DNA of 64,000 bases from a virus (IMGVR_UViG_3300045988_184227), one strand, 5' to 3'; counted from the stretch's first letter, positions 27,593 through 57,968 are shown. Notes: generated by a model not told the origin, from the letters alone. Numbers and translations: made by a program.

Positions 27593-28597
27593 ATGGTTAA
27601 AAAGTCTAATGAAATTAAGGATCCTAAAATTGATGTTTTTAAACAATTGCAAACTTTTTCAAAAAAATCTGTTAGTGATGTGGCAACAATTTTGGAAAAC
27701 GACGAATCTTTTATGGGGGCGTTAAATACCTTAATTAAAAATTGTTCTTATTTTTTAAATCTCAAAAACGTTGATACTCAAGAAGGAAAATTGCTTGTTG
27801 AAAATTTAAATTTAGTTCCTGAACTAGAAAAAGCAATTGGTGAAATTACAATTTCATTTGATGAGCGGTTTGTGACAAGAAATAATTTTTACGTTCACGA
27901 AATTAAAAATTTAAAAATCAACATTCCCCAAAATACAAATCCCAATATCAAAACAATAATTACTGAAAGATTTTCAAAAGTAAAAGGTGATCTCTTAGAA
28001 ATTAATGTTTACGATATAAAAAAAAGCCCTTCACAACGAGCAAAAAAAAGTGAAATTGAAAATTTTTTACTTAAGAAAATTAAAAGAGGATTATATCCTT
28101 TTAATATTATTTTCCGTGATAAGTGGATTGAAACAACCACAAAACTTATTCCACTTTTGATTGACAATGATGGACAGCTTTACACAGATAAGAGTTATAA
28201 ATTTCAAAAGGAATGTATTAAATTCGGAAATTTACAAATTGGACTAAATACTTTAGGAACTTACTCTTCAAAATCAAACGGGCTGTTCTTTAATTATTTA
28301 TGTAATAATCTTGATCTTAATAAAAAACTCTTATTAGAATTTTATGCCGAAAAGATAATCAAATACGCAGTTAAAAAAGCCTCGGAAGTTTTAATTTTGA
28401 ACGATCCCTTTACAATTGATGATGTTCGAAAGGGTAACGCTAAACTTGAATTGATTTCTGATGAGAAAATAAAAGAGCGTCTTAAATTTAATCATAACGT
28501 ATTAGGTCTCAAAGATTTCATCAAAAATGAAAAAGATCCAAAACAAATCGAACGATTTGCTGAAATTATTGCAGAGTTGTTAAAGGGTAACGCCTAA
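27593..28597 (+). CDS. Paralog family A member 1 (unknown function)
   Basis: Shares NTNP, YPFNIIF, LLIDNDGQL and C-terminal DPKQIERFAEIIAELL motifs with 29921, 30878, 31944 and 33028. Confidence 0.6.
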   Translation: MVKKSNEIKDPKIDVFKQLQTFSKKSVSDVATILENDESFMGALNTLIKNCSYFLNLKNVDTQEGKLLVENLNLVPELEKAIGEITISFDERFVTRNNFYVHEIKNLKINIPQNTNPNIKTIITERFSKVKGDLLEINVYDIKKSPSQRAKKSEIENFLLKKIKRGLYPFNIIFRDKWIETTTKLIPLLIDNDGQLYTDKSYKFQKECIKFGNLQIGLNTLGTYSSKSNGLFFNYLCNNLDLNKKLLLEFYAEKIIKYAVKKASEVLILNDPFTIDDVRKGNAKLELISDEKIKERLKFNHNVLGLKDFIKNEKDPKQIERFAEIIAELLKGNA

Positions 28598-28680
28598 GAA
28601 AACTGAATTAATTCAGTTTTCTTTTTTTATAATTTTAAAAATAAATTACTGAGCAAGCTCAGAGAAAGAAGGAACCAACA

Positions 28681-29226
28681 ATGACAAAACAATTTAAAGC
28701 TCAAAAGAAATCTATCGAAACATTCGCTCTCCAATATGATGGTCATAACACTGAATTGGTATTGGATTTGTTAAATAAAAACAAATCAGAACCGGCTATT
28801 CTCGAAGAAAAATCAAAAACCATTTTGATTACTAAAACTTTTGGGGATAAAAAACAACCAATTTCATTACCGGTGAATAATTGGATTTTATTAGATGTTG
28901 ACGGAGTATCTTACTGGTCTGTCGATCCTGAAATTTTCTCTAAAACATACGAAAAAGTTGAGGGAGATACTTACAAAAAAGTACCAATTCAGATCGATGT
29001 GATTGAATTTTCTTCTTTAAAAGATGAAGACATCCAGGATGTTCTGAATTTCATTGGAGAAGCAACTCAAACGACTGAATCAGTCAAAGAAGTGGGGTAT
29101 ATTTCAATTGACACTCTAGAAGGCAAGGAAAATATGTTTCAAACAGATATTCTTGCTCGTGGGGTAAAGGGCGAACTTTACCCAATTAAAAAAGAAAACT
29201 TCGATATCATTTTTGAAGTTTTGTAA
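28681..29226 (+). CDS. Hypothetical protein
   Basis: Own leader with CTGAGCAAGCTCAG palindrome plus SD. Terminator at 29238-29268. Confidence 0.5.
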   Translation: MTKQFKAQKKSIETFALQYDGHNTELVLDLLNKNKSEPAILEEKSKTILITKTFGDKKQPISLPVNNWILLDVDGVSYWSVDPEIFSKTYEKVEGDTYKKVPIQIDVIEFSSLKDEDIQDVLNFIGEATQTTESVKEVGYISIDTLEGKENMFQTDILARGVKGELYPIKKENFDIIFEVL

Positions 29227-29328
29227 ATAAAATTGAAGGGCACACGAGTGTCCTTTTATTTTTATTCTATAATTAATTCAGAATTAAAATAAATCCGATC
29301 AACTTAATCGGGGAAAGAAGGAAATAAT

Positions 29329-29826: not shown

Positions 29827-29920
29827 AAAACGAGGGGCGGCACCCTCTTTTTTTATTGAAAAAAAGTACGAATTTTGATATAATAAATTAAAAGAATAAA
29901 AAAAGAAAGAAGGTTTTACA

Positions 29921-30787
29921 ATGACAGCAAAACTTAATAAAAAGCTAGAATTTTTACGTAGCGGAAGCGAGCAGGATCTCCTGAAAGAGTTCAAGAAGAA
30001 CAAAGCTCTTATCAAACGCTTGGGTACTGTTAGACAAAAATTCGATGAGGTTTTTGAAGAGGCTAAAGAGCGTGCCCGGTTAGATAACAGTCGAAAGGGA
30101 GATAATGGAATTATTATGTTCCACGACAATCCGGAATTGATTTTTGAATTTCTTGAAACTATCCAAAAAATGAAAATTGAAGTTGATTACCAAAAGGACG
30201 AATTGGTTCTTGGTATGTTTGATACATTCGGATTTAAATCAGAACCAAAAACAAAACACACATCAAACGATTTTGAAATGGAATTTCCCGGATATAGAAT
30301 CAAAAACATAATGATTACATTCCCTGAAAACACAAATCCGAAAATTTCTGACTACATCATCAATATTTCAAAAAATCTTGATGATATTGAAGAAAATTTC
30401 ATTATGGAAGATCGAACTTTTTATTATTCTCCTTTTGAGAAGGATGAAAAAAAACGGGTTTGTGATTCTATTCGATCAATGATTAACAATCAGGGTAATA
30501 TAACATCTTTACTTTACAAATATCGTCCAAGTATTGTAACAGTTAGAATTACTTTATCTGTAGATAAAGATGGTAAATTATTTGTTACAAATAATAAAAA
30601 TCGAACTACTATTTTGGATTTTAATTTGTTTGTCGTGAGTAACGCACCTCATTTTATAGTAAATGCAATCGACCCAGATATCAACAATGATTTCTTTGAC
30701 TATACTTTTAGAAAAATTTCAGAAGATGATTTCTTGTTGAAGTTAATAAAAATCTTCAAAAAAGAAGCTAAAAAAGCTCTCTTCTAA
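29921..30787 (+). CDS. Paralog family A member 2 (divergent, shorter)
   Basis: DNPELIFEFLETIQKMKIEVDY and FPENTNPKISD motifs align to the other family A members. Confidence 0.55.
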   Translation: MTAKLNKKLEFLRSGSEQDLLKEFKKNKALIKRLGTVRQKFDEVFEEAKERARLDNSRKGDNGIIMFHDNPELIFEFLETIQKMKIEVDYQKDELVLGMFDTFGFKSEPKTKHTSNDFEMEFPGYRIKNIMITFPENTNPKISDYIINISKNLDDIEENFIMEDRTFYYSPFEKDEKKRVCDSIRSMINNQGNITSLLYKYRPSIVTVRITLSVDKDGKLFVTNNKNRTTILDFNLFVVSNAPHFIVNAIDPDINNDFFDYTFRKISEDDFLLKLIKIFKKEAKKALF

Positions 30788-30877
30788 GAAGTAGACGCAG
30801 AGATTGAGAGAGTTGATTTTTGTAATCAATTCTCTTTTATAATTAAAGAAAAATATATAGAGAAAGAAGGTGCTCGA

Positions 30878-31837
30878 ATGAAAAGTTCGAAAGATAATAA
30901 CAATGAAGTTTTAGATTTATCTTTGTCACTTAAGAATATTGCAAAAATGAGTGATGAGGATATTTTATCAAAAATAGGTGAGGCTAAAATTGTAAAAGAA
31001 ATCTATGATGAATTTGCAGATTTGTACGCACGATTGAATTACACTGATGATTTTGCAAAGATGTTTGCTGAAAAACCGGAATTAATCTTTGAGTATGAGA
31101 AAGCGATTAAGGATTTAAAATTTGATTTTAATATCGTCGAAAACTCAAGCAATACTTTTGAAGTTGGCAAGTATGTTTCTGTAATATTTCCAGAAAAGAT
31201 TCGTAGAGAATTTAAGGATAAAATTAATACTAAAGTTAAGGAAATTTCCAATGGTTTTAGTTGGGAACATTTTACAGTTTCATTTCGTGTGAACTCGAAA
31301 TATGACTCTGAAGATAAAGTCGTAACCTCTTTATCTAAGTATTTGAAAGAAAAATTATCCTTTACTAACCACATCTATCATTCTGAAAAATCGTCACATC
31401 ACTATCTTAAAACAACTACTGTTTATCTTGATAAAAATAAAATTTTATCTTTGGACTTCAAACATCATCTTATTGTTTTATTAAATTTGAAGATTGGCGT
31501 TAACGATAAAAACAATTTTTTATCTCGTGATAATAAGTTATTTTTAAAAGCGTTTATTAACGATGAAGATGATGGAATTTTATTAAAAGATTATTGTGAT
31601 AAAGTTAGAAAAAAGGCTCTAGAATTAAGCGCAAAATTTTTAATTGAAGAGGATATCTTTTCCTTTAAAGATTTAGAAGCTAGAACAGCCTCATTAGACT
31701 ATTTCACTGATAAAAAAATAAAAAGCGAATTGCGTTACAATAATAACTTCTGTGCTATTAAAGAACTTTTGTATAACGAATCAAAAGAAAATAAAAAACG
31801 TTTCGCTGATATTATTACAGAATTATTGTTAGAATAG
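30878..31837 (+). CDS. Paralog family A member 3
   Basis: EKPELIFEYEKAIKDLKFDF and C-terminal KKRFADIITELLLE. Terminator at 31860-31890. Confidence 0.6.
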   Translation: MKSSKDNNNEVLDLSLSLKNIAKMSDEDILSKIGEAKIVKEIYDEFADLYARLNYTDDFAKMFAEKPELIFEYEKAIKDLKFDFNIVENSSNTFEVGKYVSVIFPEKIRREFKDKINTKVKEISNGFSWEHFTVSFRVNSKYDSEDKVVTSLSKYLKEKLSFTNHIYHSEKSSHHYLKTTTVYLDKNKILSLDFKHHLIVLLNLKIGVNDKNNFLSRDNKLFLKAFINDEDDGILLKDYCDKVRKKALELSAKFLIEEDIFSFKDLEARTASLDYFTDKKIKSELRYNNNFCAIKELLYNESKENKKRFADIITELLLE

Positions 31838-31886
31838 CTGTATTACTTTAAGTTTTTAACAGACCGACATTAATGTCGGTCTGTTC

Positions 31887-31935: not shown

Positions 31936-31943
31936 GTGAAAAA

Positions 31944-32963
31944 ATGGTAAAGACTACCAAAGATGAAACAAACTTTATCAATTTAGTTAATAGGATGAAG
32001 GTTCTTGCTAATAAGAGTGTTGAAGAAATTTACGAAGACTTACTTGATAACGATCCGTTCAACAATGCTATTGATTATATTTTGACTTGTTTGCGCTCAT
32101 CTTTAAAATCAAATTCAAAAGATAGGGATATTCGTTTATTAGCTAACAATCCTCATCTTATATTAGAATATGACAAGATTGTAAGTGAACTTGAAATTTC
32201 TTGTGATTTTGAAGACGGGCCTTATTCTATCATATCATCTCCCTGGAGTAATGATACTTACGAGACAATTTTAATTAAAAATCTTTTAGTAAGTGATATT
32301 CCATCTGATATCAATAAGAAGATGAGTTTATCGCTAGAAAAACGGATTCAAATTGCAAAGAGAAAGGTTTCTCTTATAAAGAAAATAGATCTCAACATTG
32401 ATCCATATAATAGTGAGACTCCAGAAGAAGTAACCCACAATGACGTTATTTCTAAGGTATCAAAAATGATGAAGGAAGAGTTATCTCCATTCAATATATT
32501 TCTCGGTATTGAAAGGTTTTCTAAACATATTTCTTTATTTGTTGATAGTGATGGCAATTTAGGCAATGTTTTCGAATCCAACACACAAGATTACACAAGG
32601 TTTTGTGATGTTGATGTCTATTTATACCCAAGAAGTCCAGATCTTTTAAAAACATCTTACATCAAAATGTTGGAAGATAGATATGGAGATTCTTATGATG
32701 ACATTGTTATATATTATGCAAAAATAATCAAACTAGAAGCTGAGATGTACCTATCCAAACTTTTGCTTGGTGGTAATAAATTTACTCTTGACAATGTTAA
32801 AACCGGGCAGTACGGGCTTGGTATTCTAAGCGAAGGAAGAATTGAGGATGAGATTCGCAATCGTGTTGCATTTAAACAGCTAAAATCTCTAATCCAGTAC
32901 GAAAATGATCCTGAACAGAGAAAAAGATTTGCAGAGGCTGTCTCCAGATTATTACAAGAATAG
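31944..32963 (+). CDS. Paralog family A member 4
   Basis: NNPHLILEYDKIV, SPFNIFLGI, LFVDSDGNL and DPEQRKRFAEAVSRLLQE. Confidence 0.6.
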   Translation: MVKTTKDETNFINLVNRMKVLANKSVEEIYEDLLDNDPFNNAIDYILTCLRSSLKSNSKDRDIRLLANNPHLILEYDKIVSELEISCDFEDGPYSIISSPWSNDTYETILIKNLLVSDIPSDINKKMSLSLEKRIQIAKRKVSLIKKIDLNIDPYNSETPEEVTHNDVISKVSKMMKEELSPFNIFLGIERFSKHISLFVDSDGNLGNVFESNTQDYTRFCDVDVYLYPRSPDLLKTSYIKMLEDRYGDSYDDIVIYYAKIIKLEAEMYLSKLLLGGNKFTLDNVKTGQYGLGILSEGRIEDEIRNRVAFKQLKSLIQYENDPEQRKRFAEAVSRLLQE

Positions 32964-33027: not shown

Positions 33028-34071
33028 ATGGTAATTAAAACAAAAGAAGATGATGATAATCAATTTATTAATCTAATGAATGCTGCAAAAAATCTAGCAA
33101 AAATAGATACATCTGAAATTGTTAAAGTTTTAAGGAAAAATAGAGCATTTAACTTAAAAATGGAAGATATTTTATGCAAAATTAAATCAAATTTCAAAAC
33201 TAATAGTAATGATCGAGATATTCGTTTGTTCGCAAACAATCCTCATCTCATCATTCAGCACGATGAAATAGTAGAAAATTTAGTTTTTGATATTGATTAT
33301 AGATTCTTTGATTCAAAGACAAATTTCAAACCTGGCGGTAAACTTGGTAGAGATCATAGATATCTATTGGAAATTACAAAATTAAATATTACAGGAGTTC
33401 CTGATGATATTAATAAAAAAATGTATCTTTTTTTAACAAAAAACATTAAGAAGCTTGAGGTTGAGACGGCATATATTTTTAATAATCTTATTAACACCAG
33501 AAATCCTAGTGTTGAACTTGATAGAGAAGAAACTATAAATAGAATTTCAAAATATCTTGCAAAAAAACTATCAGTTTTCAATCAATTTAATTTTGATTCA
33601 AATTTAGGTTCTTATACAATAGAATTTTATATTGATTCAAATGGTGAACTATCACTCTATCATACAACTGACTCCTCCAAAGTTGGTCATCACAAAATAA
33701 AGTTATCAACTAAGGATTTTTCAACAAGCTGGATGAATAAAAATTTAATTCAGATGTTAATCGACCCTCGTGGTGAAGGTTATGAAAATATTTTAGAATA
33801 TTATGCGAAAAAAGCAAAGGAAGATTTTGAGGATTATTATAAAAAAATTCTACTTTCCGAAGATTGTTTTGAATTTAAAGACTTTCTATCCCAAAAGCAG
33901 CCGATTTGGCTTATAAGTGATGAGGAATTAAAATCTGGATTGATAGATAATGATTCGATGATGAAATTAATAAATATGTTTCAATTCAAATGTGATCCTG
34001 AACAAAAGAAGAGGGTTATTCGGATTGTCTCTGAAATTTTAGAAGATATGGATAGTATTCTTCCGTTTTAA
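33028..34071 (+). CDS. Paralog family A member 5
   Basis: NNPHLIIQHDEIV, FYIDSNGEL and DPEQKKRVIRIVSEILE. Confidence 0.6.
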   Translation: MVIKTKEDDDNQFINLMNAAKNLAKIDTSEIVKVLRKNRAFNLKMEDILCKIKSNFKTNSNDRDIRLFANNPHLIIQHDEIVENLVFDIDYRFFDSKTNFKPGGKLGRDHRYLLEITKLNITGVPDDINKKMYLFLTKNIKKLEVETAYIFNNLINTRNPSVELDREETINRISKYLAKKLSVFNQFNFDSNLGSYTIEFYIDSNGELSLYHTTDSSKVGHHKIKLSTKDFSTSWMNKNLIQMLIDPRGEGYENILEYYAKKAKEDFEDYYKKILLSEDCFEFKDFLSQKQPIWLISDEELKSGLIDNDSMMKLINMFQFKCDPEQKKRVIRIVSEILEDMDSILPF

Positions 34072-36759: not shown

Positions 36760-38208
36760 TCAACTTTCAAGCCTTGAAATCTCATCTCGAAGATCATCAA
36801 TTTCTTGGTTCAAAGAATCAATCTCATCATCTTTGTATTGAATTGTGCGTTCAAGATCTTCACGTTCTAAAGAAAAATCTTTTTCTAAATCCTCTCGCAA
36901 GTCAGACTTAGCTTCCTCGATAATTCCATCGATCGTATCTCTAAGAGAATTATGATCATACTTATAAAGGAAAAAGTCAATATCTTCATTAGAAATCAAT
37001 TTGTAATATTTCATTAAGACGTCCGAAAATTTAGCTCCTTCACCCTTGAGTTTTGATAAAATTTTCTCCTTAAGATATACTTCAGCAAGAGCCCCGCTTT
37101 CGTTTAACAGATTTCCATCTTCATAATCAAAGGTTACACTAAAAATCTTTTTCTTGTGTAATTCAAGGAGTGATAATGATTTATTTTCTTTGCTGAAATA
37201 ATCATAACATCTAATACTGCGAGTTTTTCCCAAAATTTTCTTTTCCTCCTTGAAGAACTTATAGAAAATATCCGGTAACTCATCTCTCTTATTAAACATT
37301 GTGTAAATATCACTGCGACAGAATGGTGATTCTTTCAAAAAGTTATAATCCATCAACTCGTATCTCTCAACTGTACTGATATACTTGGTAGCTTTCTCTA
37401 TTGAGATAATACGTTCCGGATTATTAGAAAAATATTTCTTCTTCAAATATCCAAGTCGTGCCATCTCCTTCAAGATAAAGTGAAGGAGAATATCGATACC
37501 AAACCAATCGCTTTCCAAAAGTGTTTTGATACCGGATTTCTCAACAAACTCAGCTACTTCGTCTGACAAATTACCATTCATAATATCATCAATCTCAAAC
37601 AAAATTAAGATAGATGGAAAAAAGAATTTATTATCTAAAGGATTTTCTTTTAAATAATCAAATTGTTCTAGAGTAACTTTTTGTAAATATTTCATAAAGT
37701 TCTCACTTTTTCGAACATCTTTTGCTTTCAATCCGAGTTCTAATAAGAACAAAATTGACTTGTATCCCTCATCACCTTTAATATTTATTGATTTTAGGTA
37801 ATTTTTTACAAAAGGAACAAAGTCGTCCTTTTTTAAATTATCAGATAAGGTTGAATCTTCAAAATCTTTTCTAATAGAATCAAACAGTAATCGTTTTAAT
37901 TCATCCTCATTTTGATTAATCTTAACTGAAGCAGTTACAGGAATTAGATTGTAAATATTCAGTGGTTTTTCAATTTTTTCTTTCATCATCTTTATAGTAA
38001 TTAGATTGATTCCACCATCGGATGATTCGATTAAGTAAATTGTTTTTGTGGTATCATCGTAATAAGCGATACGAGAATTGAATAAAGATCCACCTAAATC
38101 AACAACCGAGATATCTTCCGGCTTTTCAGATAAAAGTTTAGCTACTGTTTTTAAATAAAACTTACCTTCCAAAGATTTGCTCTTTGTTGGCTCATCAGTT
38201 CTTTTCAT
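36760..38208 (-). CDS. Hypothetical protein with an N-terminal VVDLGGSLFNS...LIESSDGG segment and a C-terminal coiled coil
   Basis: The N-terminal motifs are reminiscent of actin/ParM/Hsp70 phosphate loops. The C-terminal heptad-rich tail is acidic. Confidence 0.45.
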   Translation of the reverse strand: MKRTDEPTKSKSLEGKFYLKTVAKLLSEKPEDISVVDLGGSLFNSRIAYYDDTTKTIYLIESSDGGINLITIKMMKEKIEKPLNIYNLIPVTASVKINQNEDELKRLLFDSIRKDFEDSTLSDNLKKDDFVPFVKNYLKSINIKGDEGYKSILFLLELGLKAKDVRKSENFMKYLQKVTLEQFDYLKENPLDNKFFFPSILILFEIDDIMNGNLSDEVAEFVEKSGIKTLLESDWFGIDILLHFILKEMARLGYLKKKYFSNNPERIISIEKATKYISTVERYELMDYNFLKESPFCRSDIYTMFNKRDELPDIFYKFFKEEKKILGKTRSIRCYDYFSKENKSLSLLELHKKKIFSVTFDYEDGNLLNESGALAEVYLKEKILSKLKGEGAKFSDVLMKYYKLISNEDIDFFLYKYDHNSLRDTIDGIIEEAKSDLREDLEKDFSLEREDLERTIQYKDDEIDSLNQEIDDLRDEISRLES

Positions 38209-38298: not shown

Positions 38299-38925
38299 TT
38301 AGATATTGTACGTTTCATCCAAAAATTCAACAAATCGTTCAACGTTGCCTTCAAGTGACACGTCAGGAAGAACGTTGAAAACTGGCAAACAGAACAAATC
38401 TTGAATAGTTGATACACGTTCTTGTTCGAGTTGAACTCGATCGATACGTCCGTTGATTTGTTCTTCGTCACCACCACGAGATTTGATACGCTCGATAGCA
38501 ACATCAATAGGTAGATTCAAAATCACAGGATATACCTTTACACGTAAACCACCATACTCGTAATACAGGTCACCCTGATCTTGGAATACGTGTGAGTAGA
38601 AGTTCGTATCTGCAACTAATACAGCGTGATTGGTGAAATTATCAGTTTTCGAGACAACCTCATCTTTCGTAACGCCGTAAAGATTTTCTTGGAATTTTGT
38701 TTCCTCAAAAACTGAGTTTGATTCGGACAATTCATTGGCTTGTGCCTCTGAAAGAAAATAATAATCAACTCCATCTACCTCCCCAGGCCGTGGGGGTCGT
38801 GTGGTATACGAAATCAATGTGTGCTCATCGTCGAAAATTTTAGATAGAGTTGTTTTCCCAGAACCTGAAATTCCGGTAATCACCACAATACCAGCTTGAC
38901 GCTTTTCTTGGTTTTCGATAATCAT
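38299..38925 (-). CDS. gmk: Guanylate kinase
   Basis: P-loop ITGISGSGKTTL. YTTRPPRPGEVDGVDYYF matches the GMP-binding signature. Confidence 0.8.
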   Translation of the reverse strand: MIIENQEKRQAGIVVITGISGSGKTTLSKIFDDEHTLISYTTRPPRPGEVDGVDYYFLSEAQANELSESNSVFEETKFQENLYGVTKDEVVSKTDNFTNHAVLVADTNFYSHVFQDQGDLYYEYGGLRVKVYPVILNLPIDVAIERIKSRGGDEEQINGRIDRVQLEQERVSTIQDLFCLPVFNVLPDVSLEGNVERFVEFLDETYNI

Positions 38926-39589: not shown

Positions 39590-41160
39590 AAAAAAGAGGG
39601 TTTTAAATCCCTCCAAACCGGTTTTCCCCTACGAGGTGTTCACCGGAAACTATTATAAGACTGGTGGGGTATTCTTCGGGCGATACCTCACATCAACGCC
39701 TAAATATAGGTTTAAATGGTTTATACAAATGTATCATTTGTTATCATTTGTATCATTTAATTTTTAACATTCCACAATGACTTTTAACTCATCGTTTATG
39801 TTAAAGGCAACCTACATCACCTCTATAAGCCCTCTTTGGTGAATACCAAATACGGGTTTACGTGTATTTTTCTATTAACTTTTTATTAGACAATATATTA
39901 TAACCAGTCAAACTTCTTGTATGAAATGATACATTATTTCTGTTGAGACAAATACCAAATTTACTCAAACCCTTACTCAGGATGTTATATGATCCATTAA
40001 TATCAGCATTAATAAGTTTTCCGTTCTTAGATTTATACAAACCTCTTTTTACACGTTTTCCAGAAAATGTATATTTTTTACCATCGTTTTTCCAAACCGG
40101 AATTACATCAGAGTCTATAAAGCTAGCTTTTGATGTGTAAGATTCTTCCTGCTCTACAACTTCTATTCCTCGTAACTGACATTTGTACTTTAGCTGAGAA
40201 ATAAATTTATTATAGGGAATTTGAACAAAATTTTGATTCCCCTTTTTACCAATAGAAATACCAGACTTTAAACCAACATTTTTACCAATAAAAACCTTTT
40301 CAAGTGCCATCTCGTCGAAAAATTCTGCTAAAAATCCTGTGATTTTATGAAATTCTGATTGCAATTTCATCTCACGATTTCTAAAAAGACGGTGGATGTG
40401 CTTACTTGTTTTTTGATTATTTGGTAATTTAGATTGATATTTAGATATCAGGCGATTATACCCTTGATTGATATATTTAACATTCAACCCCTTAATCAAA
40501 AGCGGGTTCGTTCCATCAGAAAATGTAACCGCAGCCAAATTATCAACGCCGAGGTCAATTGAAGCGTATTTATGAGTTTTTCTTAAAGGTTTTTCTTTAA
40601 CCTCGTAAATAACATCAATAAAAAAATAACCATTTCTTGGAATTATCTTGACACATTTTGGGTTGTCAACTTTTGTTGGAATTGAGATCCTCAGATCTTT
40701 TGGGCATAAGATAAGTTCGTTATTTCCCCCACGCTTTTTAGCGAAAGTTTGGTTTGTGAACTCAACCGCATACCTACCTTCTGTCTTGTGTAGATATCCT
40801 GGGATCTTTGGTTTGTTAGTTATTTTCTTATTTGACTTGTCATTGTAACCTTTTAAAACCTGATAATATGAACTGATATTACCACCCAACATTTTTATGA
40901 TATTGGTTGAAACCTTAGATGGCAATGCTTTCATATCGTTCTGGTCTTGTTTCCTAAATTCAGAAACTAATTGTGACCAGCTTAGTACTGGTTTTTTATT
41001 TTCTTTATCAGACTTTTCTCGTTCAAATATTGATTGACGGATTTGATACAATCCAGCATTATAAAGATTCTTAGATTTAAATGTTAAATCATCACAAATT
41101 TTGTATAAATCATTGCTAGGTTTGATTAGATGTCTTTCTACTTGTCTCACTACTGCCTCC
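39590..41160 (-). mobile_element. IS605/IS1341-type element remnant: tnpB-like gene plus downstream structured non-coding right-end region. No tnpA.
   Basis: TnpB RuvC motifs. GC-rich 270-nt non-coding tail with hairpins at 39590-39857. Confidence 0.55.
39858..41150 (-). CDS. tnpB: TnpB-like RuvC nuclease lacking the CxxC...CxxC zinc finger
   Basis: RuvC-I IDLGVDNLAAVTFSDG. RuvC-II EESYTSK. RuvC-III INADINGSYNIL. No Cys between RuvC-II and RuvC-III. Confidence 0.75.
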   Translation of the reverse strand: MRQVERHLIKPSNDLYKICDDLTFKSKNLYNAGLYQIRQSIFEREKSDKENKKPVLSWSQLVSEFRKQDQNDMKALPSKVSTNIIKMLGGNISSYYQVLKGYNDKSNKKITNKPKIPGYLHKTEGRYAVEFTNQTFAKKRGGNNELILCPKDLRISIPTKVDNPKCVKIIPRNGYFFIDVIYEVKEKPLRKTHKYASIDLGVDNLAAVTFSDGTNPLLIKGLNVKYINQGYNRLISKYQSKLPNNQKTSKHIHRLFRNREMKLQSEFHKITGFLAEFFDEMALEKVFIGKNVGLKSGISIGKKGNQNFVQIPYNKFISQLKYKCQLRGIEVVEQEESYTSKASFIDSDVIPVWKNDGKKYTFSGKRVKRGLYKSKNGKLINADINGSYNILSKGLSKFGICLNRNNVSFHTRSLTGYNILSNKKLIEKYT

Positions 41161-43271: not shown

Positions 43272-43366
43272 AATATTTTTATAAAGTCGGGTGGGTGATT
43301 CCCATCCGCTTTTATAATTTTAGAAAAAAAACAAACTTTAACAGTTTTAGAAAGAGGGTGCTTGTT

Positions 43367-44149
43367 TTGATTACAACAAACCAAAATCACAATTTGCTTT
43401 TAGAATTAGAAAAACACATTCTTAAGGTTCTAGATCAATATTCAAAATCTGGAGACCAATTTCTTAATTTTCCAGAAAAGGGTGTATTCCCCCCTAATAA
43501 AATGAGAATCGGGGTTGGACATAGAAGCTCCAAAATTGTATTCTGCATTTTTAATGATAAGTTCTACTGTGTAAACTCGGGAGAAATGTTGCCAATTGAT
43601 CAGTTTGTAACGCTTTACGATTCTAGCATTGACTTTCAAAAAGAGATGACAGATATCGTAGTAAACGCCGATGAGTTTGCAAAGATTCTTGTTAATCGTG
43701 TGGCAAATTACAATTTTAATACATTTTATTACGACAAAATATATGGATTTCTTTATGAATATATGATTAAAGGAGAAGCCTCCAAGCGTGAGGCACGTGA
43801 ATTTCTGTATAGATTTTACGAACTTTCAAACGAAGACAGTGCTTACAAACATAGCTTGCAAGATTTCGTCTATAACCTACTTTTCAAAGGATCTGATAGC
43901 CTTGCTGTAAAACATCTGAAATCTAAGCCATACTCTCAGACTTTGAATAAAAATTCAAACTCTGATTTTTCAAAAGTCTTATCTGATTTTGTTACAGATG
44001 AAAATAAACTCCTGGAATTTCTTCAGAGTTTAGGTAAGTCAACTTTTGGGGATTGGGCCTTTGATTACCTGGAAAAAGAATGGGACAATCTATTTGATTT
44101 TGATAAAGAAAAATTCAAAAAATTATTGTCAGATAACAATATCGAATAA
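43367..44149 (+). CDS. Paralog family B member 1 (TTG start)
   Basis: LLLELEKHILKVL...IVFCIFNDKFYCVNSGEMLPIDQFVTLYD aligns with 44245 and 51762. Confidence 0.55.
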   Translation: MITTNQNHNLLLELEKHILKVLDQYSKSGDQFLNFPEKGVFPPNKMRIGVGHRSSKIVFCIFNDKFYCVNSGEMLPIDQFVTLYDSSIDFQKEMTDIVVNADEFAKILVNRVANYNFNTFYYDKIYGFLYEYMIKGEASKREAREFLYRFYELSNEDSAYKHSLQDFVYNLLFKGSDSLAVKHLKSKPYSQTLNKNSNSDFSKVLSDFVTDENKLLEFLQSLGKSTFGDWAFDYLEKEWDNLFDFDKEKFKKLLSDNNIE

Positions 44150-44244
44150 TTCTTTGCGAGAAAATTGGAGGTTTCTTGAAACTTCCAATTTTTATTTTTT
44201 GTGGTATAATTTTTAAAAAAAGAATAAAGAAAGAAGGATTGTTT

Positions 44245-45492
44245 ATGATTCAAACTAATAGTGGTGGTCTTCTGCTGAGATTAGAACAGAAGATTTTGGA
44301 GTCAATTAATCTATACGTCGATTCTGGAGAACAGTTTTTAAATATTCCTGATCGTGAAGTATTCGATGATGAATTTATCAAATTTAAAGCAAAGAATATT
44401 AAAAAAGTAGTATTCTGCTTAGACAACAATAAATTTTATCTTTTATCAAATGGAGGAGCTCTTCCGAGGGATAAGTTTGTTGTGCTTTTTGATGAGGAGA
44501 AATACGGATATGAGATTCCGGACACATTAACCTCAGAACTAATGAAAAATATTTTATTAACGAGATTCTCAAAAGGAAAATTCGGAATTTTTTCTTGTGA
44601 TGATTTTTATCAGTTGCTTTTCAAATATCACAAGTATTGTGATTCGAAGAACTCTGATTTAGATTTGGATGAAAGCAACTTTAGGACAGCTTTGAGACGA
44701 TATAAGTTTTCAAACACAAATAGTGACTTTGAGGTTGAACTCAAGGATTTTGTTTTTGATGTATTTTTTAAAAGTGAAAATAAGTATGCAATTGTCTCTT
44801 TTGAAAAGGGTTATTTGACCACTCAGTTAGAAGATTTTTTCTTCAATTTTATAAATAGTGAAGATAAGTTGTTATTTTTCTTCAAGAATTTAACAAAACC
44901 ACTTGGTAGATCTGAAAAGAAACTTCTATTTTCAATTTCAAAGAAAATTCCTGATTTTAGTTTGTTAAACTTTTACAAAAACTTATTATTAGACTACAAC
45001 GAAATATCTGTTGCGGATTTAATTTCAATTGCTAATGAATTGTGTGATGATTTTTTTAAGTTATTCGAAGATTCAAACTTAAATATTAAGGTAACACCGA
45101 GATTTAACGAGGCTTATTTTGAAAATAATAAGGATGAAAGTTTCGAAATTAATTTTGGGAAACTTGTGGAAGATAAAAGGATTCAGATGATTGGCCTTGA
45201 AAGTTTAGTGAGTAAAATAGAGGATCGATCTAAATATTTAAAAGAATACAGAGATTCTTTACAAAAAAGATTAGATAGAGGTAATCTTGATACATCGAAA
45301 TTTAAGGATGATTTTTCTAGATTTAATACAGAATACATTGAATTTAATGTTGGGTTAAAAACTTTAATTCTATTTAAGAAGCAATTATCCGACAAGGAAA
45401 GTGAATCTTTAGTTGAATCGTTAAAAAAAATTAGTGTGAATCTGGCTGGAACTGGGTTTTCAGGCCAATTTGCTCAAATTCACGAAAATTAA
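44245..45492 (+). CDS. Paralog family B member 2
   Basis: LLLRLEQKILESI...VVFCLDNNKFYLLSNGGALPRDKFVVLFDEE. RBS AGAAAGAAGG. Start refined from the ORF track. Confidence 0.6.
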   Translation: MIQTNSGGLLLRLEQKILESINLYVDSGEQFLNIPDREVFDDEFIKFKAKNIKKVVFCLDNNKFYLLSNGGALPRDKFVVLFDEEKYGYEIPDTLTSELMKNILLTRFSKGKFGIFSCDDFYQLLFKYHKYCDSKNSDLDLDESNFRTALRRYKFSNTNSDFEVELKDFVFDVFFKSENKYAIVSFEKGYLTTQLEDFFFNFINSEDKLLFFFKNLTKPLGRSEKKLLFSISKKIPDFSLLNFYKNLLLDYNEISVADLISIANELCDDFFKLFEDSNLNIKVTPRFNEAYFENNKDESFEINFGKLVEDKRIQMIGLESLVSKIEDRSKYLKEYRDSLQKRLDRGNLDTSKFKDDFSRFNTEYIEFNVGLKTLILFKKQLSDKESESLVESLKKISVNLAGTGFSGQFAQIHEN

Positions 45493-47369: not shown

Positions 47370-47900
47370 CTATCGAGTAATAATATTTGGAAACTCACCG
47401 TTATTCAAAAAATTCTGATAAATTGACAACAACTTTTTCTTAATAAAACTTTTAAACTTGTAATTTATAAATCTATCAAGATAATAATCGTTAACTTCCA
47501 ACTTTCGATTTTCTGATCCGCTTAACAGGCTTTTTCCAAAAATCGCTCTAAACTGTCGAGTTTCACGACTTGAATTTAAGTGCAACTCACCCAATAAAAT
47601 AGGTTGACTCACACACAAATCTTCAGTAAATTTTGGAAGATAATCAATATCGTATTTGGAGAAGATTTCAAATGTGTTTGTTTCACAGAAGTAATAAATA
47701 AGAAAAACAGGAAGCTTCAATTCACTTACAGATCCAGCAGTAACACATACATAAGGATATTGATTTAGCTTCTTAATAGATAATCTAACAACATCCATAA
47801 ATTGTTCTGAAAGTGGATATTCTCCTTTTTGGATAATATCTTTTATTTGCTTCATCTGTTCAAACTGAGAAGATTCTTCTGTTTTTGTGTTTAAAACCAT
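47370..47900 (-). CDS. Hypothetical protein
   Basis: Leader CTGAATTTATTTCAG plus SD at 47901-47930. Confidence 0.5.
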   Translation of the reverse strand: MVLNTKTEESSQFEQMKQIKDIIQKGEYPLSEQFMDVVRLSIKKLNQYPYVCVTAGSVSELKLPVFLIYYFCETNTFEIFSKYDIDYLPKFTEDLCVSQPILLGELHLNSSRETRQFRAIFGKSLLSGSENRKLEVNDYYLDRFINYKFKSFIKKKLLSIYQNFLNNGEFPNIITR

Positions 47901-47975
47901 ATTTCCCTCTTTCTACTGAAATAAATTCAGATTTTTTAATTTCTTAAATTATAAAAGAGGAGGGAGGATACCCCC

Positions 47976-51631: not shown

Positions 51632-51761
51632 TTTTTCCTTCTTTCTAGCTGTAATAATAACAGCGAAATATTATTTCTTTAATTATAACAGACTTGAATT
51701 TGCTTTTATAATTAAAGAAATAATAAATCTGAATTTATTTCAGTAGAAAGAAGGTATTAAA

Positions 51762-53057
51762 ATGAAAGAAACAGGAAATTTACTGTTGGAAATAGACAAG
51801 ATGGTTCTTGACGCTGTTAACAATGGCGCAAAACTATTGCTACCAACAGAAAATCTCTTTCCAAAATCAATAGTAGAGGCTGGCGTTGGCGGAAATTCAA
51901 CAATTATTTTATTTTGTTTTGTAGACAATAATTTCTATCTAACATCAAGTAGTTTTGATTATCCGCTTGATAGATTCGTTGCGGTTGCCTACGGTAACAG
52001 TGTTGATGATGTACTATATAATAGCACACACGTATCCATCGAAACTCTTCGTGTTGAATTGAATTATCGAGCTACATCCTTGGATTCTGTTGTAGACGAA
52101 CACGCCTTTAATCTTATGAACATTTTTAAAAACTCACCTCAAAGTGATGAGGGTAATAAAAAGCGCATTAAGATTCTGGAGATAATTCCCTTATCCGACG
52201 AAGAAAATTATAAATATCCATACAATAAGGATATTCGTAAAAAATTCGTAGATCATTTTACAAAATTTTTCTTGGATGAATGCGCAGACGAATTTTACGG
52301 AGCTCTCAGCTGGTATTATAACAATGCAGAAACCAAAAACTTTTCTTTGACAGGTTTAACATTGGAATTGTTGCAAAATGAAAAAAATTGGGATTCGTTT
52401 TTCTGTAAAATTGGATATCCAATCGATGATCTTGTTATTGAGGGAATATTGATGAATTTATTTGAAACAAGAGATGATGTTTGCAATTTTTTAAATAAAT
52501 TTATTGATTACCACAAAAGAAAGGGTTTTACTCCAACATTCAACGCATTCAATTTCTCTCTTTTTGTTGATTATCTATCTGTTTATTTTTCAGATGATAA
52601 ATACTATCTGGATTTGTTTAAGAAAAATAGTTTTAAACTCATTCTAGACTTTGTTTTGAAGAATCATTACGACAAAAATAATGATTTTATTTACGAAAAA
52701 ATAACTGAATATAACAAAAATATTGATGTGAGCCTTTGGACTGAATTTATTGAAGAAGGTATCCTGGAAATAAAAGGTCTTTCGGAAGAACTGGCTTATT
52801 TATCAGATAGAAAAATAGAAGATTTTTATGTTAAAATTTTTGGAAAGGTTGATAAAGTACTCTGTTCAAAAGAACTTTTGAATTATTATATTTTTCTAAA
52901 AATTTACAAAGGTATCAACGATTTAGTTGATAAAGACAAATCAATAGAACAACAAATCAAGGACAAGAAAAATAGAGCTATTTTGAGTAAAAAAATAAAA
53001 TCTATTAACGACATTCTTGCCGGCTTGAAATTCTTGGAAAAGAAAAATTTTATCTAA
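51762..53057 (+). CDS. Paralog family B member 3
   Basis: LLLEIDKMVLDAV...IILFCFVDNNFYLTSSSFDYPLDRFVAVAYG. Leader CTGAATTTATTTCAG plus SD at 51729-51752. Confidence 0.6.
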   Translation: MKETGNLLLEIDKMVLDAVNNGAKLLLPTENLFPKSIVEAGVGGNSTIILFCFVDNNFYLTSSSFDYPLDRFVAVAYGNSVDDVLYNSTHVSIETLRVELNYRATSLDSVVDEHAFNLMNIFKNSPQSDEGNKKRIKILEIIPLSDEENYKYPYNKDIRKKFVDHFTKFFLDECADEFYGALSWYYNNAETKNFSLTGLTLELLQNEKNWDSFFCKIGYPIDDLVIEGILMNLFETRDDVCNFLNKFIDYHKRKGFTPTFNAFNFSLFVDYLSVYFSDDKYYLDLFKKNSFKLILDFVLKNHYDKNNDFIYEKITEYNKNIDVSLWTEFIEEGILEIKGLSEELAYLSDRKIEDFYVKIFGKVDKVLCSKELLNYYIFLKIYKGINDLVDKDKSIEQQIKDKKNRAILSKKIKSINDILAGLKFLEKKNFI

Positions 53058-53059
53058 AT

Positions 53060-53090
53060 AAAAAACAGCTTAAAAGCTGTTTTTTTGTTT
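53060..53090. terminator. Bidirectional terminator between convergent genes
   Basis: AAACAGCTTAAAAGCTGTTT hairpin flanked by A and T runs. Confidence 0.65.
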
Positions 53091-54649
53091 TAAAAGGTGA
53101 TTTTATTGAATGTCGACTCTTCCTTAACCATCCAATAATCATCATCCCAGTCAAGATCATCCTCATTCAAAGAGAAACCTGAATCATCTAAAACCTTAGA
53201 AAATTCAATTTTTGGTTCTAACTTTCCATAATCAGATTTCGCCATAAGTTCCATCTTTTTAATTAGAAATTCAATATCCATTTTGTATATTTGGAGATCG
53301 ATAGAATCTTCTGAAACTAATTGAGAAAATAACTCACAAGACTTTTGATGTTCAAGTAAGAAATTCTTTGCTGTTTCTGATTCAGAATAGAAACGGAGCT
53401 CATTATTGATTTTTGATAATCCCTCTTCTCCACTTCGACCAAAAGTTTTAAGAGTGAAAACATCGACTAACGAAAAGTTCTTATAAGCAAATTTAACATC
53501 ATCCTTGATTTCAAGGAGTTTTTCTAAAAATTTATTATAAATCTTTAGACTGACAAGTGTTTTTCTTAAATCATCAAGAGTCGAGCTTGAATGATAACCT
53601 GTAAACTTATGAGCCCAATCCTTCGACAATTCCCCAGAAAAATCCTGGAACAAACAGATAGGTTTATTCTTTTCGCTGAGAACTTTTTTAAGCGCAATAA
53701 CTAGTCTGCTGATCAAATCATCCAAAAAGTCTTCGTCCACCCCATACGTTGAATTTGGTTTAAATTCAACAAAATTCAACAATCTAATTAATTCTGCATT
53801 AAAGCGGAGATATTTATCATCTTCGATGTTTGAATCTGATATTAGAGAGTTTGCGTATTTATAAAAGCAAAAGTCTAAAAGTTCTTCAAATTCATCTTGG
53901 TGATTCTTTTTAAATTGACAAAAAGATTTGATATATTTTAATATATAAACAATATCACTATCTCTGTAACGAACGTCTTCGACAAAATCGATTTTGACAT
54001 ATTCACGTATAGAGTCGATAATCGTATCCTTTCCAAAGAAAGATAGTAGAACCTTAGAGCTGTAATTAATTTCGTGCTCATTTTTTTGATTTTTTAAAAT
54101 ATTAGACCAAGAGGCGGCTGGAGATGAAACCAAAACACTCTTTAGCTTGTCTACTAGGATTTTTTCAAGCCCTGAAGTATCATCAGAATTGATAATTGAA
54201 TCAATTGATTGAAATTTAGTAACATAATCAATATAGTTAATTTCATTGCTGATCGTGCTATACTGCTTATTCAATCCTTCATTGTTAAATTTAGTACCAT
54301 CATCATAAACATTTGATAACTCCTCAATCAAAATGCTCTTTAATTTTGAAATCCGATTTTCCTTATTGTTATTACCGGATAAATCAGCGATGACACTTAG
54401 ACCAGTAGATATAGATTCTAAACCATCAGGTCTATACTTTGTATTGTAAAAATTATTTTGTTGGGCGTTTGCGATTTCAATTTTTTTTGATTTTTCATTA
54501 ATGAAATACAACTTTTTCTTGTTGCCATCATCAATAACATCGATATCGCCAATGACAAACTCCCAATCGCTAGGATTACCTAACATCACAACCAAATCTC
54601 TAATATGCTGGAGATATAGAGATAAAACGCTGTTTTTACTTTGTTTCAT
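53090..54649 (-). CDS. Paralog family D member 1
   Basis: WEFVIGDIDVIDDGNKKKLYF aligns with CKFIFGDLEILKDGGGEDLISV of 56706-57968. Confidence 0.55.
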   Translation of the reverse strand: MKQSKNSVLSLYLQHIRDLVVMLGNPSDWEFVIGDIDVIDDGNKKKLYFINEKSKKIEIANAQQNNFYNTKYRPDGLESISTGLSVIADLSGNNNKENRISKLKSILIEELSNVYDDGTKFNNEGLNKQYSTISNEINYIDYVTKFQSIDSIINSDDTSGLEKILVDKLKSVLVSSPAASWSNILKNQKNEHEINYSSKVLLSFFGKDTIIDSIREYVKIDFVEDVRYRDSDIVYILKYIKSFCQFKKNHQDEFEELLDFCFYKYANSLISDSNIEDDKYLRFNAELIRLLNFVEFKPNSTYGVDEDFLDDLISRLVIALKKVLSEKNKPICLFQDFSGELSKDWAHKFTGYHSSSTLDDLRKTLVSLKIYNKFLEKLLEIKDDVKFAYKNFSLVDVFTLKTFGRSGEEGLSKINNELRFYSESETAKNFLLEHQKSCELFSQLVSEDSIDLQIYKMDIEFLIKKMELMAKSDYGKLEPKIEFSKVLDDSGFSLNEDDLDWDDDYWMVKEESTFNKITF

Positions 54650-54777
54650 TATTACCTTCTTTCTGTAACTTTTAAAGTTACTATTTTTTCTTTAATTATA
54701 ACAGTCTTGTTTATTCTTCTATAATTTTAAAAATATTGATATTGAGTGTATACCGCACTCTAGAAAGAGGGAATGAA

Positions 54778-55767: not shown

Positions 55768-56665
55768 AACAGAAGAGAAGAAACTATCCCAGAACATTAA
55801 GAAAGAAATCAATCGATACACGGTTAAAAAGATTTTTACAACTGAAACTGCAAAGGATTTGGCTGAAAAGTTGTTTATTCTTGCGGGTGGCGATCAGGAA
55901 CCTTACAAACTTAAAACTGGAAAGAATAAAGGTTTGTTCCGGATTCCAAAGGCTCAAGCATACGATATCATTATCGAATATTGGGATTATAACATTGCAC
56001 TCCAGTTTGCACGAAATGAACTGATGACAGTATTACCTAACGGTAAGTATAAGTACGATAAGTACAATCAGTATCGAACGGCGGAGCGCAATTATCGTCT
56101 AGAATCACAACAGGAAAATTTCTGGGCCAATCGTCAAGGTAACTTAGACCAAACCATTCAACAAATTAACCGTCGCTACTGTATCTCACGTCGAACACGT
56201 GAGAAACTGGTAGTAGAGATGGCGCTTAATCAACTTAGCGTGACACACTTCAATGCACTACGAAATGATTTTATCGAGTATGAGATTTTTAAAAACAATT
56301 CGGAAGTGTTCCCAACGTTGAAACATAGTGCCGGTTTGGACTATTTTGTTGATGGCGTACCATACGATCAGAAAGTTTCTCGTAGCCTCGGTGCTATGTT
56401 TGAAAAGGATTACGATTCGCACGATGAGGCAGTAAAAGCAGCTCGAAATAATCCTAGCAAACTTGCACAAAGTCTATTTGAAAATCAGGATGTTTACCGA
56501 CTTGAAAAGGGTGATATCTGTAACCGACTTTACGTTGTTTACTTGGATGAGAGTAGCTTTGAAAACATCAAGTTTAGCACACGAAGGATTACAAACAAGG
56601 AGGTGACAATGGTTCACTTCCCGGACAAACCGGATTGCTACAAGGCAATGGTGGTTTTCGTCTAA
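55760..56665 (+). CDS. Hypothetical protein
   Basis: Overlaps the stop of the upstream gene. Start ambiguous between 55751 and 55760. Confidence 0.5.
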   Translation: MSKTEEKKLSQNIKKEINRYTVKKIFTTETAKDLAEKLFILAGGDQEPYKLKTGKNKGLFRIPKAQAYDIIIEYWDYNIALQFARNELMTVLPNGKYKYDKYNQYRTAERNYRLESQQENFWANRQGNLDQTIQQINRRYCISRRTREKLVVEMALNQLSVTHFNALRNDFIEYEIFKNNSEVFPTLKHSAGLDYFVDGVPYDQKVSRSLGAMFEKDYDSHDEAVKAARNNPSKLAQSLFENQDVYRLEKGDICNRLYVVYLDESSFENIKFSTRRITNKEVTMVHFPDKPDCYKAMVVFV

Positions 56666-56705
56666 AACACAAAAAAGAAAAGAGGTTTTGCCCCTTTTCT
56701 TTTTT

Positions 56706-57968
56706 TTATTTTAATTTTAATAAAGCCTCGATTGCGTTGATAATCTTATCGTAATTCTCATCTTTAACAATTAAAGAATCATAATCAATAATTGCTGTAT
56801 AAAATTCAGATAGGAAATCAAACAAGCGGTTCGTCCCTTCAATCAAATCAAAGAACTTTTTACTTTCGAGTTGAATCAACGTATCTGTTGCTTTTACCAA
56901 TCCAATCATAAATTTAGTTCTACTATTTTTTGATTTTGCTTTGGATAATTCTCTAAACTCTACGGTATCAAGATCAACTTGCTTTTTAACTCCAAATTCG
57001 TTTTCAATATCGATAATCAAATAAACGAAATCATCTTTATTTTCAGAATTTGCATAGTAGAAGTCGTGAATAAAAGAGTGTTGTCGTTTCATTTGGAATT
57101 TTTTCCAAAACTCATCGGTGGCACATTCAAATCCGTGATACTTATATATCAACTGAACTAATCCGTAATCCAATTGAAGCTTGGAAGCATATTCAGGCTT
57201 TAGAATATTATCTCGAATATAATCTTTGGGTAGATTTTTGATTCCATTTTCGTAATCCATCCAATCAGTCGGATAGTAAGATTGTGGAGTAATAATCGTT
57301 TTAGAAATTTCGTACTCAAAATTCTTAATCGAATTATTTTTAACCCAATCAAGATAGTCTGTATCAATAAATAGATTGTTTTTTTCAAAACGTTCAGATT
57401 TTGATAGTAGACTTAAATAGCTGGATAATTTATAGTGTTTACTATCACTAAGACCCCTTAACCATTCCAAAAAACGACTGTTCGCTTTTAAAATTTCATC
57501 TACAAACTCATCATCCTCAAGCTCCACCGACCTATCTGTTCGCTTTTGAATAACGAATTGTAAATCATCCTTGTCCGCTTCAAGAAAGATGGTATCAATA
57601 ACATCCTTTGTTAATTGATTTAAGGTGAAATATTTCAAGGTTTTCTTTAAATAGTTATTTAGAATCTCCTTTTTCTTATCAATAGGATGATTGACATAAA
57701 ACTCGATATCTAAATATAAACCCAAAGGTGTACAATCCGAATTTAATCTGTTGATATATTTATCAATCGGATCACTGCTATTTTTATATCCGTTTTCGTT
57801 TTTAAACAAATAAGAGTTTAAAACTCGAGAGTAGTGGACGGAAATGAGATCTTCGCCACCGCCGTCTTTCAAAATCTCTAAATCGCCAAAAATAAATTTG
57901 CAATCATCAATGGCTTTTTCAGCTTGATTTAGGATAAAGAAATTATTATCCTTCGTGTTTTTTACCAT
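56706..57968 (-). CDS. Paralog family D member 2. Start refined to MVKNTKD.
   Basis: RBS AGAAAGAAGG 8 nt upstream of the Met at 57968. N-terminal FGDLEILKDGGG motif. Confidence 0.55.
   Translation of the reverse strand: MVKNTKDNNFFILNQAEKAIDDCKFIFGDLEILKDGGGEDLISVHYSRVLNSYLFKNENGYKNSSDPIDKYINRLNSDCTPLGLYLDIEFYVNHPIDKKKEILNNYLKKTLKYFTLNQLTKDVIDTIFLEADKDDLQFVIQKRTDRSVELEDDEFVDEILKANSRFLEWLRGLSDSKHYKLSSYLSLLSKSERFEKNNLFIDTDYLDWVKNNSIKNFEYEISKTIITPQSYYPTDWMDYENGIKNLPKDYIRDNILKPEYASKLQLDYGLVQLIYKYHGFECATDEFWKKFQMKRQHSFIHDFYYANSENKDDFVYLIIDIENEFGVKKQVDLDTVEFRELSKAKSKNSRTKFMIGLVKATDTLIQLESKKFFDLIEGTNRLFDFLSEFYTAIIDYDSLIVKDENYDKIINAIEALLKLK

Follow-up and report, generated by a model that had tools for sequence, protein, structure and literature searches.

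Inocles, described in 2025, are giant extrachromosomal elements of oral Streptococcus; they are intracellular and plasmid-like, and their host is Streptococcus salivarius (Kiguchi et al., 2025, PMC12340149). They are circular molecules of 352-395 kb (mean of Inocle-alpha, 368 kb; overall range, 245-395 kb) with a G+C content (GC) of ∼32% in the alpha, beta and gamma types, and they carry transfer RNA (tRNA) genes and many insertion sequences (ISs). Their gene content includes a RecD-like helicase, gyrase, LPXTG-like proteins, "RpoS", VirB4, VirD4 and sortase A, and more than half of their genes have no database match. Inocles are absent from isolate genomes and were reported in approximately three quarters of people. 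Their marker is the single-copy protein InoC of ∼454 amino acids (aa) with an N-terminal Replic_Relax domain (PF13814) (PMC12340149). We analyzed a 64,000-nucleotide (nt) stretch of DNA catalogued as viral (IMGVR_UViG_3300045988_184227; the whole stretch is called the window below), which probably belongs to an Inocle as judged from its resemblance to the published elements. Sequence comparison sorts 12 predicted genes in the densely coding region at 27.5-58 kb into three families of paralogs: family A with five members, family B with three, and family C with three plus a short member, Cs. Two orphan genes, D1 and D2, lie in the same region (Table 1).

The same or near-identical genes were found on metagenome contigs of 330,942-388,543 bp and on one contig of 466,018 bp. 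The GC of the window is 0.28-0.43 per 2 kb (mean ∼0.33), and it encodes 23 tRNAs, a TnpB (OrfB_IS605), RecD2, topoisomerase II and G5/SSSPR-51 surface proteins with a PVETG-type anchor; a sigma-70 gene is present in the left flank of a relative. The element and the Inocles have in common GC, tRNAs, ISs, a RecD-like helicase, LPXTG-like surface proteins, an RpoS-like sigma factor and a majority of unmatched genes; the size class of the contigs (330-388 kb here) and an apparent absence from isolates would also agree. One contig name (ZHAN15-1_SAMEA2738046) and the run ERR589705 may belong to the rheumatoid-arthritis cohort PRJEB6997, from which the Inocle paper took saliva data. InoC is not in the window: Pfam detected no PF13814 domain among the larger open reading frames (ORFs), smaller ORFs being outside the scan. 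Neither the window nor the viewed flanks of relatives contained VirB4, VirD4 or sortase A. No DNA-level match of the window to known phages or plasmids was found. The main text of the Inocle paper makes no mention of paralogous families or of a cassette architecture. One 141-kb contig (BNJS01002068.1 in GCA_015473145.1) was discarded as an isolate source; its genes are fragmented and apparently frameshifted, and it is not an isolate genome and probably derives from a metagenome assembly.

Paralogy was tested by all-against-all BLASTP of every window ORF of at least 70 aa, and then by hidden Markov model (HMM) and hhalign profile tests. The genes A1, A3, A4 and A5 matched each other pairwise in BLASTP (E 3e-5 to 9e-41). 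A2 was silent in BLASTP and was recovered by an HMM of the other four genes and their orthologs (E 1.4e-12); it carries the NPELIFE, NTNP and VDKDGKL motifs and is without the C-terminal third. In family B, B1 and B2 are clearly related (E 2e-24), and B3 matches them only via its N-terminal ∼85-90 residues (E 8e-11 and 4e-6). C2 and C3 align over their full length (E 5e-21). C1 is more distant (BLASTP ∼E 1e-4 to 2e-5 vs. C2, C3 and Cs) and is clustered with them by the family HMM, and Cs can be aligned with residues 1-170 of the three long proteins (family HMM, E 3.7e-15). An earlier model-generated description of this DNA (the original prediction) had listed the same members for families A and B and three genes for family C, having missed Cs. 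It had also paired D1 with D2 as a fourth family, which we rejected: no BLASTP match was found, the HMM comparison gave E 0.13, and hhalign gave a probability of 4.8% (E 0.008) over the N-terminal motif only, so that this short motif is all that the two proteins share. Profile-profile comparison by hhalign detected no relation between families (B vs. C, C vs. D1, and A vs. C), after which a single superfamily with a common N-terminal domain was also dropped. The predicted start coordinates were right, as the conserved ribosome-binding site (RBS) sets the starts at 43367, 44245 and 57968 (B1, B2 and D2) vs. the longer mechanical ORF starts.

The relatives used for comparison are homologous loci on metagenome contigs (L003-L012 and L094), of which ∼40 kb of flanks was viewed, 10 kb to either side of each gene. 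The order of the array is the same in the relatives, where the families are likewise multi-copy, and each paralog has a positional ortholog. Since the paralogs are only 20-33% identical to each other and each has such an ortholog, the duplications must be old and predate the sampled sub-lineages. The ORFs keep their lengths on metagenome contigs that are independent of each other and number dozens to hundreds. A HMMER search with the family A profile among 1.84 billion cluster representatives returned, apart from fragments, only five full-length clusters (338, 347, 334, 319, and 287 aa), which are the five paralog lineages of family A itself. Word-indexed searches with families A, B and C retrieved proteins of this class of contigs and nothing else, all of them without annotation. 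Family A was found neither in the 185,579 species genomes of GTDB nor in IMG/VR.

Presence and sequence of the members vary within this fixed order. In L003, A5 and two small neighbours (u181 and u165) are missing, and L003, L009 and L010 lack both B1 and B2; in relatives a different second G5 gene occupies the place that B1/B2 have in the window. The members are predicted to be individually dispensable. Several family orthologs are 39-60% identical where the adjacent enzymes are 80-87% identical. For example, A4 has 49% identity between the window and L003 vs. 87% for RecD2 and 85% for DNA polymerase, and the comparison with L009/L010 gave 39% for C1, 57% for C2, 59-63% for C3 and 50% for D1 vs. 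80% for the primase-like protein. The ratio of nonsynonymous to synonymous substitution rates (dN/dS, by Nei-Gojobori) was 0.09-0.26 for family genes, except for A1 vs. L008 (0.03), and 0.01-0.08 for RecD2, polymerase, kinase and primase, bar one near-identical guanylate kinase pair with almost no substitutions. The family values, 3-10 times those of the neighbouring enzymes, indicate selection that is purifying but relaxed. C2 and B2 (the latter vs. L012) are intragenic mosaics, with ∼90% identity in the N-terminal half and ∼55-65% in the C-terminal half, which points to recombination between diverged alleles. The original prediction of rapidly diversifying accessory loci is therefore borne out in its accessory part by losses, truncation, IS replacement and relaxed dN/dS. 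A recent expansion is contradicted by the low identity of the paralogs, their positional orthologs and a dN/dS of ∼0.2, which is purifying.

For each gene, the 130 nt before it and the 90 nt after it were inspected. The standard module begins with a terminator hairpin whose T-run leads into an exact TATAAT, with TWAAGAAA directly downstream. Then follow 10-30 nt, which in most cases make up a 5-7 bp stem-loop, and after these AGAAAGAAGG, 5-9 nt and ATG. The promoter pattern TATAATTWARRAAA (one mismatch allowed) was observed 23 times vs. 3.2 expected and the RBS AGAAAGAAGG 19 times vs. 0.3 expected; terminator-like hairpins numbered 33 vs. 7.9 expected and 26 vs. 7.5 expected. Two-hexamer sigma-70 promoters were not enriched (79 observed vs. 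80 expected), and the promoters are for this reason considered to be without a -35 element; approximately one third of them have a TGn extension. These enriched patterns agree with the predicted promoter and terminator for every gene, and each seems to form a transcription unit of its own. In the example module of Table 1, the terminator is in the predicted list and the hairpin of the 5' untranslated region (5'UTR) has a z-score of -3.4. Back-to-back divergent promoter pairs were found in three intergenic regions. Between C3 and B3, TATAATTAAAGAAA is present at 51674-51687 (-) and at 51707-51720 (+), and downstream of each copy lie a hairpin and an RBS. The cassettes had been described as a feature of the families, on which they are indeed present; however, the module is also found on single-copy genes of the 27.5-61.7 kb block, among them those for DNA polymerase and for guanylate and thymidylate kinase. 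It is rare at 1-27 kb, where operons prevail.

The 5'UTR stem-loops are constant in position and variable in sequence (mean folding z-score of -2.5 over 44 UTRs of the window and of four relatives). A stem-loop stands directly 5' of AGAAAGAAGG in approximately 20 intergenic regions at 27.5-61.1 kb (e.g., 28642-28662, 47915-47930, and 51722-51744), with stems that differ between cassettes (CTGAG/CTCAG, CCGAT/ATCGG, CTAGC/GCTAG, GTAAC/GTTAC, and AGCTG/CAGCT). The conserved Shine-Dalgarno sequence has a fixed mismatch, reading GAAGG and not GGAGG. The stem-loop may be a messenger RNA (mRNA) stabiliser or a translational control element. In Firmicutes, a 5' stem-loop combined with a strong Shine-Dalgarno sequence stabilises mRNA in the aprE leader, ermC and cryIIIA STAB-SD. 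The elements reported here resemble these in the short 5'UTR stem-loop right before an extended Shine-Dalgarno sequence. They differ in that the structure recurs as a standard part of approximately 20 cassettes, and in that the 5' ends are deduced from the -10 box. The uniform cassette provides a handle for predicting the transcription units of the element and allows testing of whether its own sigma factor drives them.

A candidate for such a factor is encoded in L094 at 14599-15702 (∼11 kb left of the window start), where a divergent sigma-70 family gene specifies a 367-aa protein with regions 2 and 4. This gene is followed by a bacterial-type topoisomerase (940 aa) and then by another SSSPR-51 protein. 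The protein is probably the "RpoS" of the Inocle paper and a candidate factor for the TATAAT-TWAAGAAA promoters.

Searches with the family proteins returned little. Pfam and PHROGs were null for single members, Pfam also for each member of the three alignments, and PDB sequence-profile searches were null for families A, B and C; the predicted lack of a recognisable motif was thus confirmed, with one exception. This exception is a weak partial match of D2 to PDC-M21C in PADLOC (E 2.9e-4, 43 residues), apart from which the PADLOC, Pfam and PHROG models gave no significant match to a known anti-phage defence or anti-defence family. In collections of phages or plasmids, tblastn with A4, B2, C2, D1 and D2 gave no hit. 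The AlphaFold2 model of family A, built for A4, is confident (predicted local distance difference test score, pLDDT, of 87), and no match to it was found in the searched structure libraries; structural searches did not assign the families to virion or other ordinary proteins. All members are soluble and mostly acidic, without a signal peptide or a transmembrane segment. Within families the N-terminal module is conserved and the C-terminal parts diverge. The residues that do not vary between paralogs are for the most part L, F, Y, W, P and G, a pattern that looks like fold maintenance and not like a catalytic constellation.

Because conservation is concentrated in a hydrophobic/aromatic core and in the N-terminal part while the C-terminal part diverges, we tentatively favor a role of the families as non-enzymatic binding proteins with diversified specificities that act at the interface of element and host, a reading that we hold to be quite possible. 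Partly redundant family proteins would bind different host components and could, for example, help the element to establish itself in a new cell, to counter defences or to modulate the physiology of the host; they would not be part of the core replication machinery. Monocistronic cassettes with a consensus -10 and no -35 element would give strong and independently tunable expression of each gene, with transcription by host sigma-A or by the sigma factor of the element itself. Several points weigh against this proposal. No member is tied by direct evidence to a target in the host or to defence, where PADLOC gave the one weak partial match. Ancient duplication and synteny fit a stable cellular role as well as an arms race, and dN/dS gave no sign of gene-wide positive selection. 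Proteins of 260-600 aa exceed the size of most known anti-defence proteins. The cassette is a property of the 27.5-61.7 kb block and nothing in it is specific to the families, whose embedding among replication genes also fits a maintenance role. Finally, the assignment of the element to the Inocles is by resemblance.

The main rival gives the proteins an accessory part in maintenance or replication of the element, be it as replisome organisers, as scaffolds for origin binding or partition, or as nucleoid-associated proteins; they would have multiplied because a 370-kb replicon needs several specialised copies. Family A shares its orientation with RecD2 and DNA polymerase, between which it is placed, and adjoins the AT-rich 1.3-kb strand-switch region; families B and C and D1/D2 are found on either side of the primase-like gene and the nucleotide kinases. 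Both the gene order kept in all relatives and the purifying selection would suit such a role. Replication accessories would not be expected, however, to be lost, truncated or replaced by an IS one at a time in otherwise intact relatives, or to have some orthologs at 39-50% identity when the replication enzymes are at 80-87%. DNA binding is also not obvious for members that are mostly acidic, and sequence and fold searches gave no winged-helix, ParA/ParB or Rep-like signal. We regard this explanation as unlikely, though worth keeping in view. Equally doubtful is the most far-reaching form of the binding-protein proposal, in which families A, B and C would be new folds confined to one Inocle lineage and form an effector/adaptor toolkit for establishment and persistence in Streptococcus. 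Candidate roles in such a toolkit would be the neutralisation of restriction, of CRISPR (clustered regularly interspaced short palindromic repeats) systems or of abortive infection, or host rewiring; the N-terminal modules and the family A tail DPEQKKRFAE..LL might act as docking/export signals for type IV secretion, and the element's own sigma factor might read the promoters.

Defence or exclusion proteins that shield the host-element pair from phages or competing plasmids, as diversified sensors, would account for the presence/absence variation, the diverged alleles and the intragenic recombination, all typical of defence loci, and for the PADLOC candidate matched by D2. But neither a nuclease, NTPase (nucleoside triphosphatase), TIR, SIR2 or other effector domain nor a match to a STAND- or Avs-type sensor fold was detected in the families, and the genes appear to be transcribed singly and not as a sensor-effector operon, which makes this explanation improbable. 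We consider it highly improbable that the genes are what the original prediction had proposed, i.e., host-takeover, anti-defence or superinfection-exclusion early genes of a jumbo phage under individual strong promoters. The many tRNAs, the polymerase, topoisomerase and kinases encoded by the element itself and the monocistronic units do resemble large-phage early regions, and the DNA polymerase is weakly similar to those of crAss-like and Leuconostoc phages. That weak similarity is the only protein match, however; among 50,697 phage genomes no DNA or family-protein match was found, IMG/VR yielded none, and BFVD contained no structural relative. Nothing viral was found in the window or in ∼40 kb of the relatives' flanks, where virion and packaging genes are absent and an apparent "terminase" is a ClpB-type AAA+ protein, and the context fits the plasmid-like Inocle, a published intracellular element of the same size, GC and genes that carries VirB4 and VirD4 (PMC12340149). 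That the ORFs are pseudogenes in decay or arose by chance in AT-rich DNA, a reading favored by the absence of annotation and nothing more, is effectively refuted by dN/dS of 0.03-0.26 in all comparisons, by the lengths conserved over dozens to hundreds of contigs, by the consensus RBS and promoter on each gene and by the confident family A model.

Binding proteins at the element-host interface remain our preferred reading. The block adjoining the replication genes consists of three old, maintained paralog families and is not a random set of orphans. Families without relatives elsewhere are concrete targets for studying how a 370-kb element persists in Streptococcus; should they turn out to serve routine upkeep of the element, interest in the finding would be modest.

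Table 1. Family genes, orphan genes and representative intergenic modules of the window (positions counted from its first nucleotide).
Feature	Coordinates	Strand	Description
A1	27593..28597	+	334 aa, isoelectric point 9.2; BLASTP to A3, A4, A5 E 9e-17 to 3e-12; orthologs by position in L003, L006, L008 82-99% identical, dN/dS 0.03-0.17
A2	29921..30787	+	288 aa; C-terminally shorter, most divergent A; orthologs 62-85% identical; absent in L007
A3	30878..31837	+	319 aa; BLASTP E 9e-17 to 3e-5; orthologs 82-92% identical
A4	31944..32963	+	339 aa; AlphaFold2 model made
A5	33028..34071	+	347 aa; 32% identity to A4; absent from L003, L004, L005
B1	43367..44149	+	260 aa; start from promoter at 43313 and RBS; absent from L003, L009, L010
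B2	44245..45492	+	415 aa; RBS 44228-44237; 274 database relatives, unannotated, same contig class
B3	51762..53057	+	431 aa; match to B1/B2 over residues 3-85; orthologs 84-95% identical
C1	45522..47258	-	578 aa; L009/L010 ortholog 39% identical; L011 copy fragmentary
Cs	47370..47900	-	176 aa, N-terminal domain only; relatives 85-92% identical, dN/dS 0.10
C2	47976..49781	-	601 aa; AlphaFold2 model made
C3	49886..51631	-	581 aa; TnpB insertion sequence instead in L011, L012; truncated to 404 aa in L009
D1 (orphan)	53090..54649	-	519 aa; L009 ortholog 50% identical
D2 (orphan)	56706..57968	-	420 aa; RBS 57975-57984; orthologs 83-95% identical
Example intergenic module	47901..47975	-	Direct reading: terminator GAGGGGGTATCCTCCCTC, TATAATTTAAGAAA, stem-loop CTGAAtttatTTCAG, AGAAAGAGGG, ATG
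Divergent promoter pair C3 (-) / B3 (+)	51632..51761	-/+	TATAATTAAAGAAA on both strands
Divergent promoter pair D1 (-) / Toprim/DUF3991 primase-like gene (+)	54650..54777	-/+	

The families are interleaved with genes for RecD2, DNA polymerase, a Toprim/DUF3991 primase-like protein, and guanylate and thymidylate kinases. Other genes of the window encode topoisomerase II, two SPFH/flotillin proteins, TnpB and a ClpB-like AAA+ protein. The guanylate kinase (38299-38925, -) is conserved at 96-99% between relatives. A recent capture from a host can be dismissed, because its identity to any homolog in the 185,579 species genomes is at most 49%, and as a clue to the host it was uninformative. Two further orphan genes without a paralog diverge in a family-like manner between relatives. 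One, at 26516-27466 (+), encodes a 316-aa protein with one hydrophobic segment; the other, at 36760-38208 (-), encodes 482 aa with an apparently heptad-like, coiled-coil-type C-terminal tail. Their identities between relatives are 44 and 57%, respectively, where the backbone is at 85-87%.

The gene-free AT-rich stretch of 1.3 kb at 22778-24117 (GC ∼0.29) coincides with a flip in gene orientation and with the minimum of the cumulative GC skew, and may be a replication origin. It contains short AT-rich repeats, e.g., TATATAATATTCTTTAATTA-like units at 23833-23950; a repeat search of this 22.8-24.1 kb gap revealed no clear iterons. The 23 tRNA genes at 332-8028 (-) cover 18 amino acids and include three tRNA-Met(CAT), with short gaps and small ORFs between them, and an Rfam scan of the window detected tRNAs only. 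The gene at 8202-11396 (-) encodes 1064 aa with two AAA+ modules closest to ClpB, ClpV and ClpA; the PHROGs label "terminase" for parts of it was wrong and was rejected. The two G5/SSSPR-51 surface proteins, at 41445-43271 (+) and 61976-63814 (-), are 74% identical paralogs ∼20 kb apart in opposite orientation, and both have a signal peptide and the C-terminal PVETG-type anchor.

The TnpB-only IS of the window (OrfB_IS605/Cas12f-like; 39858-41150, -) is also present in L007, L011 and L012 and is absent from L003, L006 and L008. A second TnpB-only IS is located in the place of C3 in L011 (8476-9699) and L012 (8424-9647). Between A2 and A3, three relatives have a 101-aa DpnD_N gene (PF23117; L003 8604-8909, L006 8600-8905, and L008 8250-8555). 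This gene is absent from the window, where a 90-bp spacer (30788-30877) is found instead.

Early modules of large phages, such as the host-takeover genes of SPO1 and the early regions of T4 and T5, consist of mostly single-copy, virion-borne genes for products of <200 aa. The present array resembles them in having orphan genes in a row, with a predicted strong promoter and terminator for each, that would be individually non-essential. It differs from them in the size of the proteins (260-600 aa), in the old paralog families and in the plasmid-like element that carries them, with no viral signal. The leading regions of conjugative plasmids carry anti-defence islands, where single-strand promoters occur. 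Common to these islands and our locus are clustered, individually promoted accessory genes, and a DpnD/PcfM-type gene (PF23117) is present in the family A array of relatives. In contrast to the islands, ArdA, ArdB, ArdC, KlcA, PsiB and Ssb were not detected here, and the promoters are ordinary double-stranded -10 elements. Multigene families (MGFs) are also known from giant DNA viruses, for example MGF360/505 of African swine fever virus and the paralog arrays of poxviruses and mimivirus. The likeness to these lies in tandem, diverged and lineage-specific paralogs with copy-number variation and a presumed role in host interaction; they belong to eukaryotic viruses, however, and with no relation in sequence or fold the analogy is one of architecture only. 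Orphan genes arranged as paralog arrays are a familiar kind of locus on large mobile elements, and families A, B and C belong to this kind without forming a new category.

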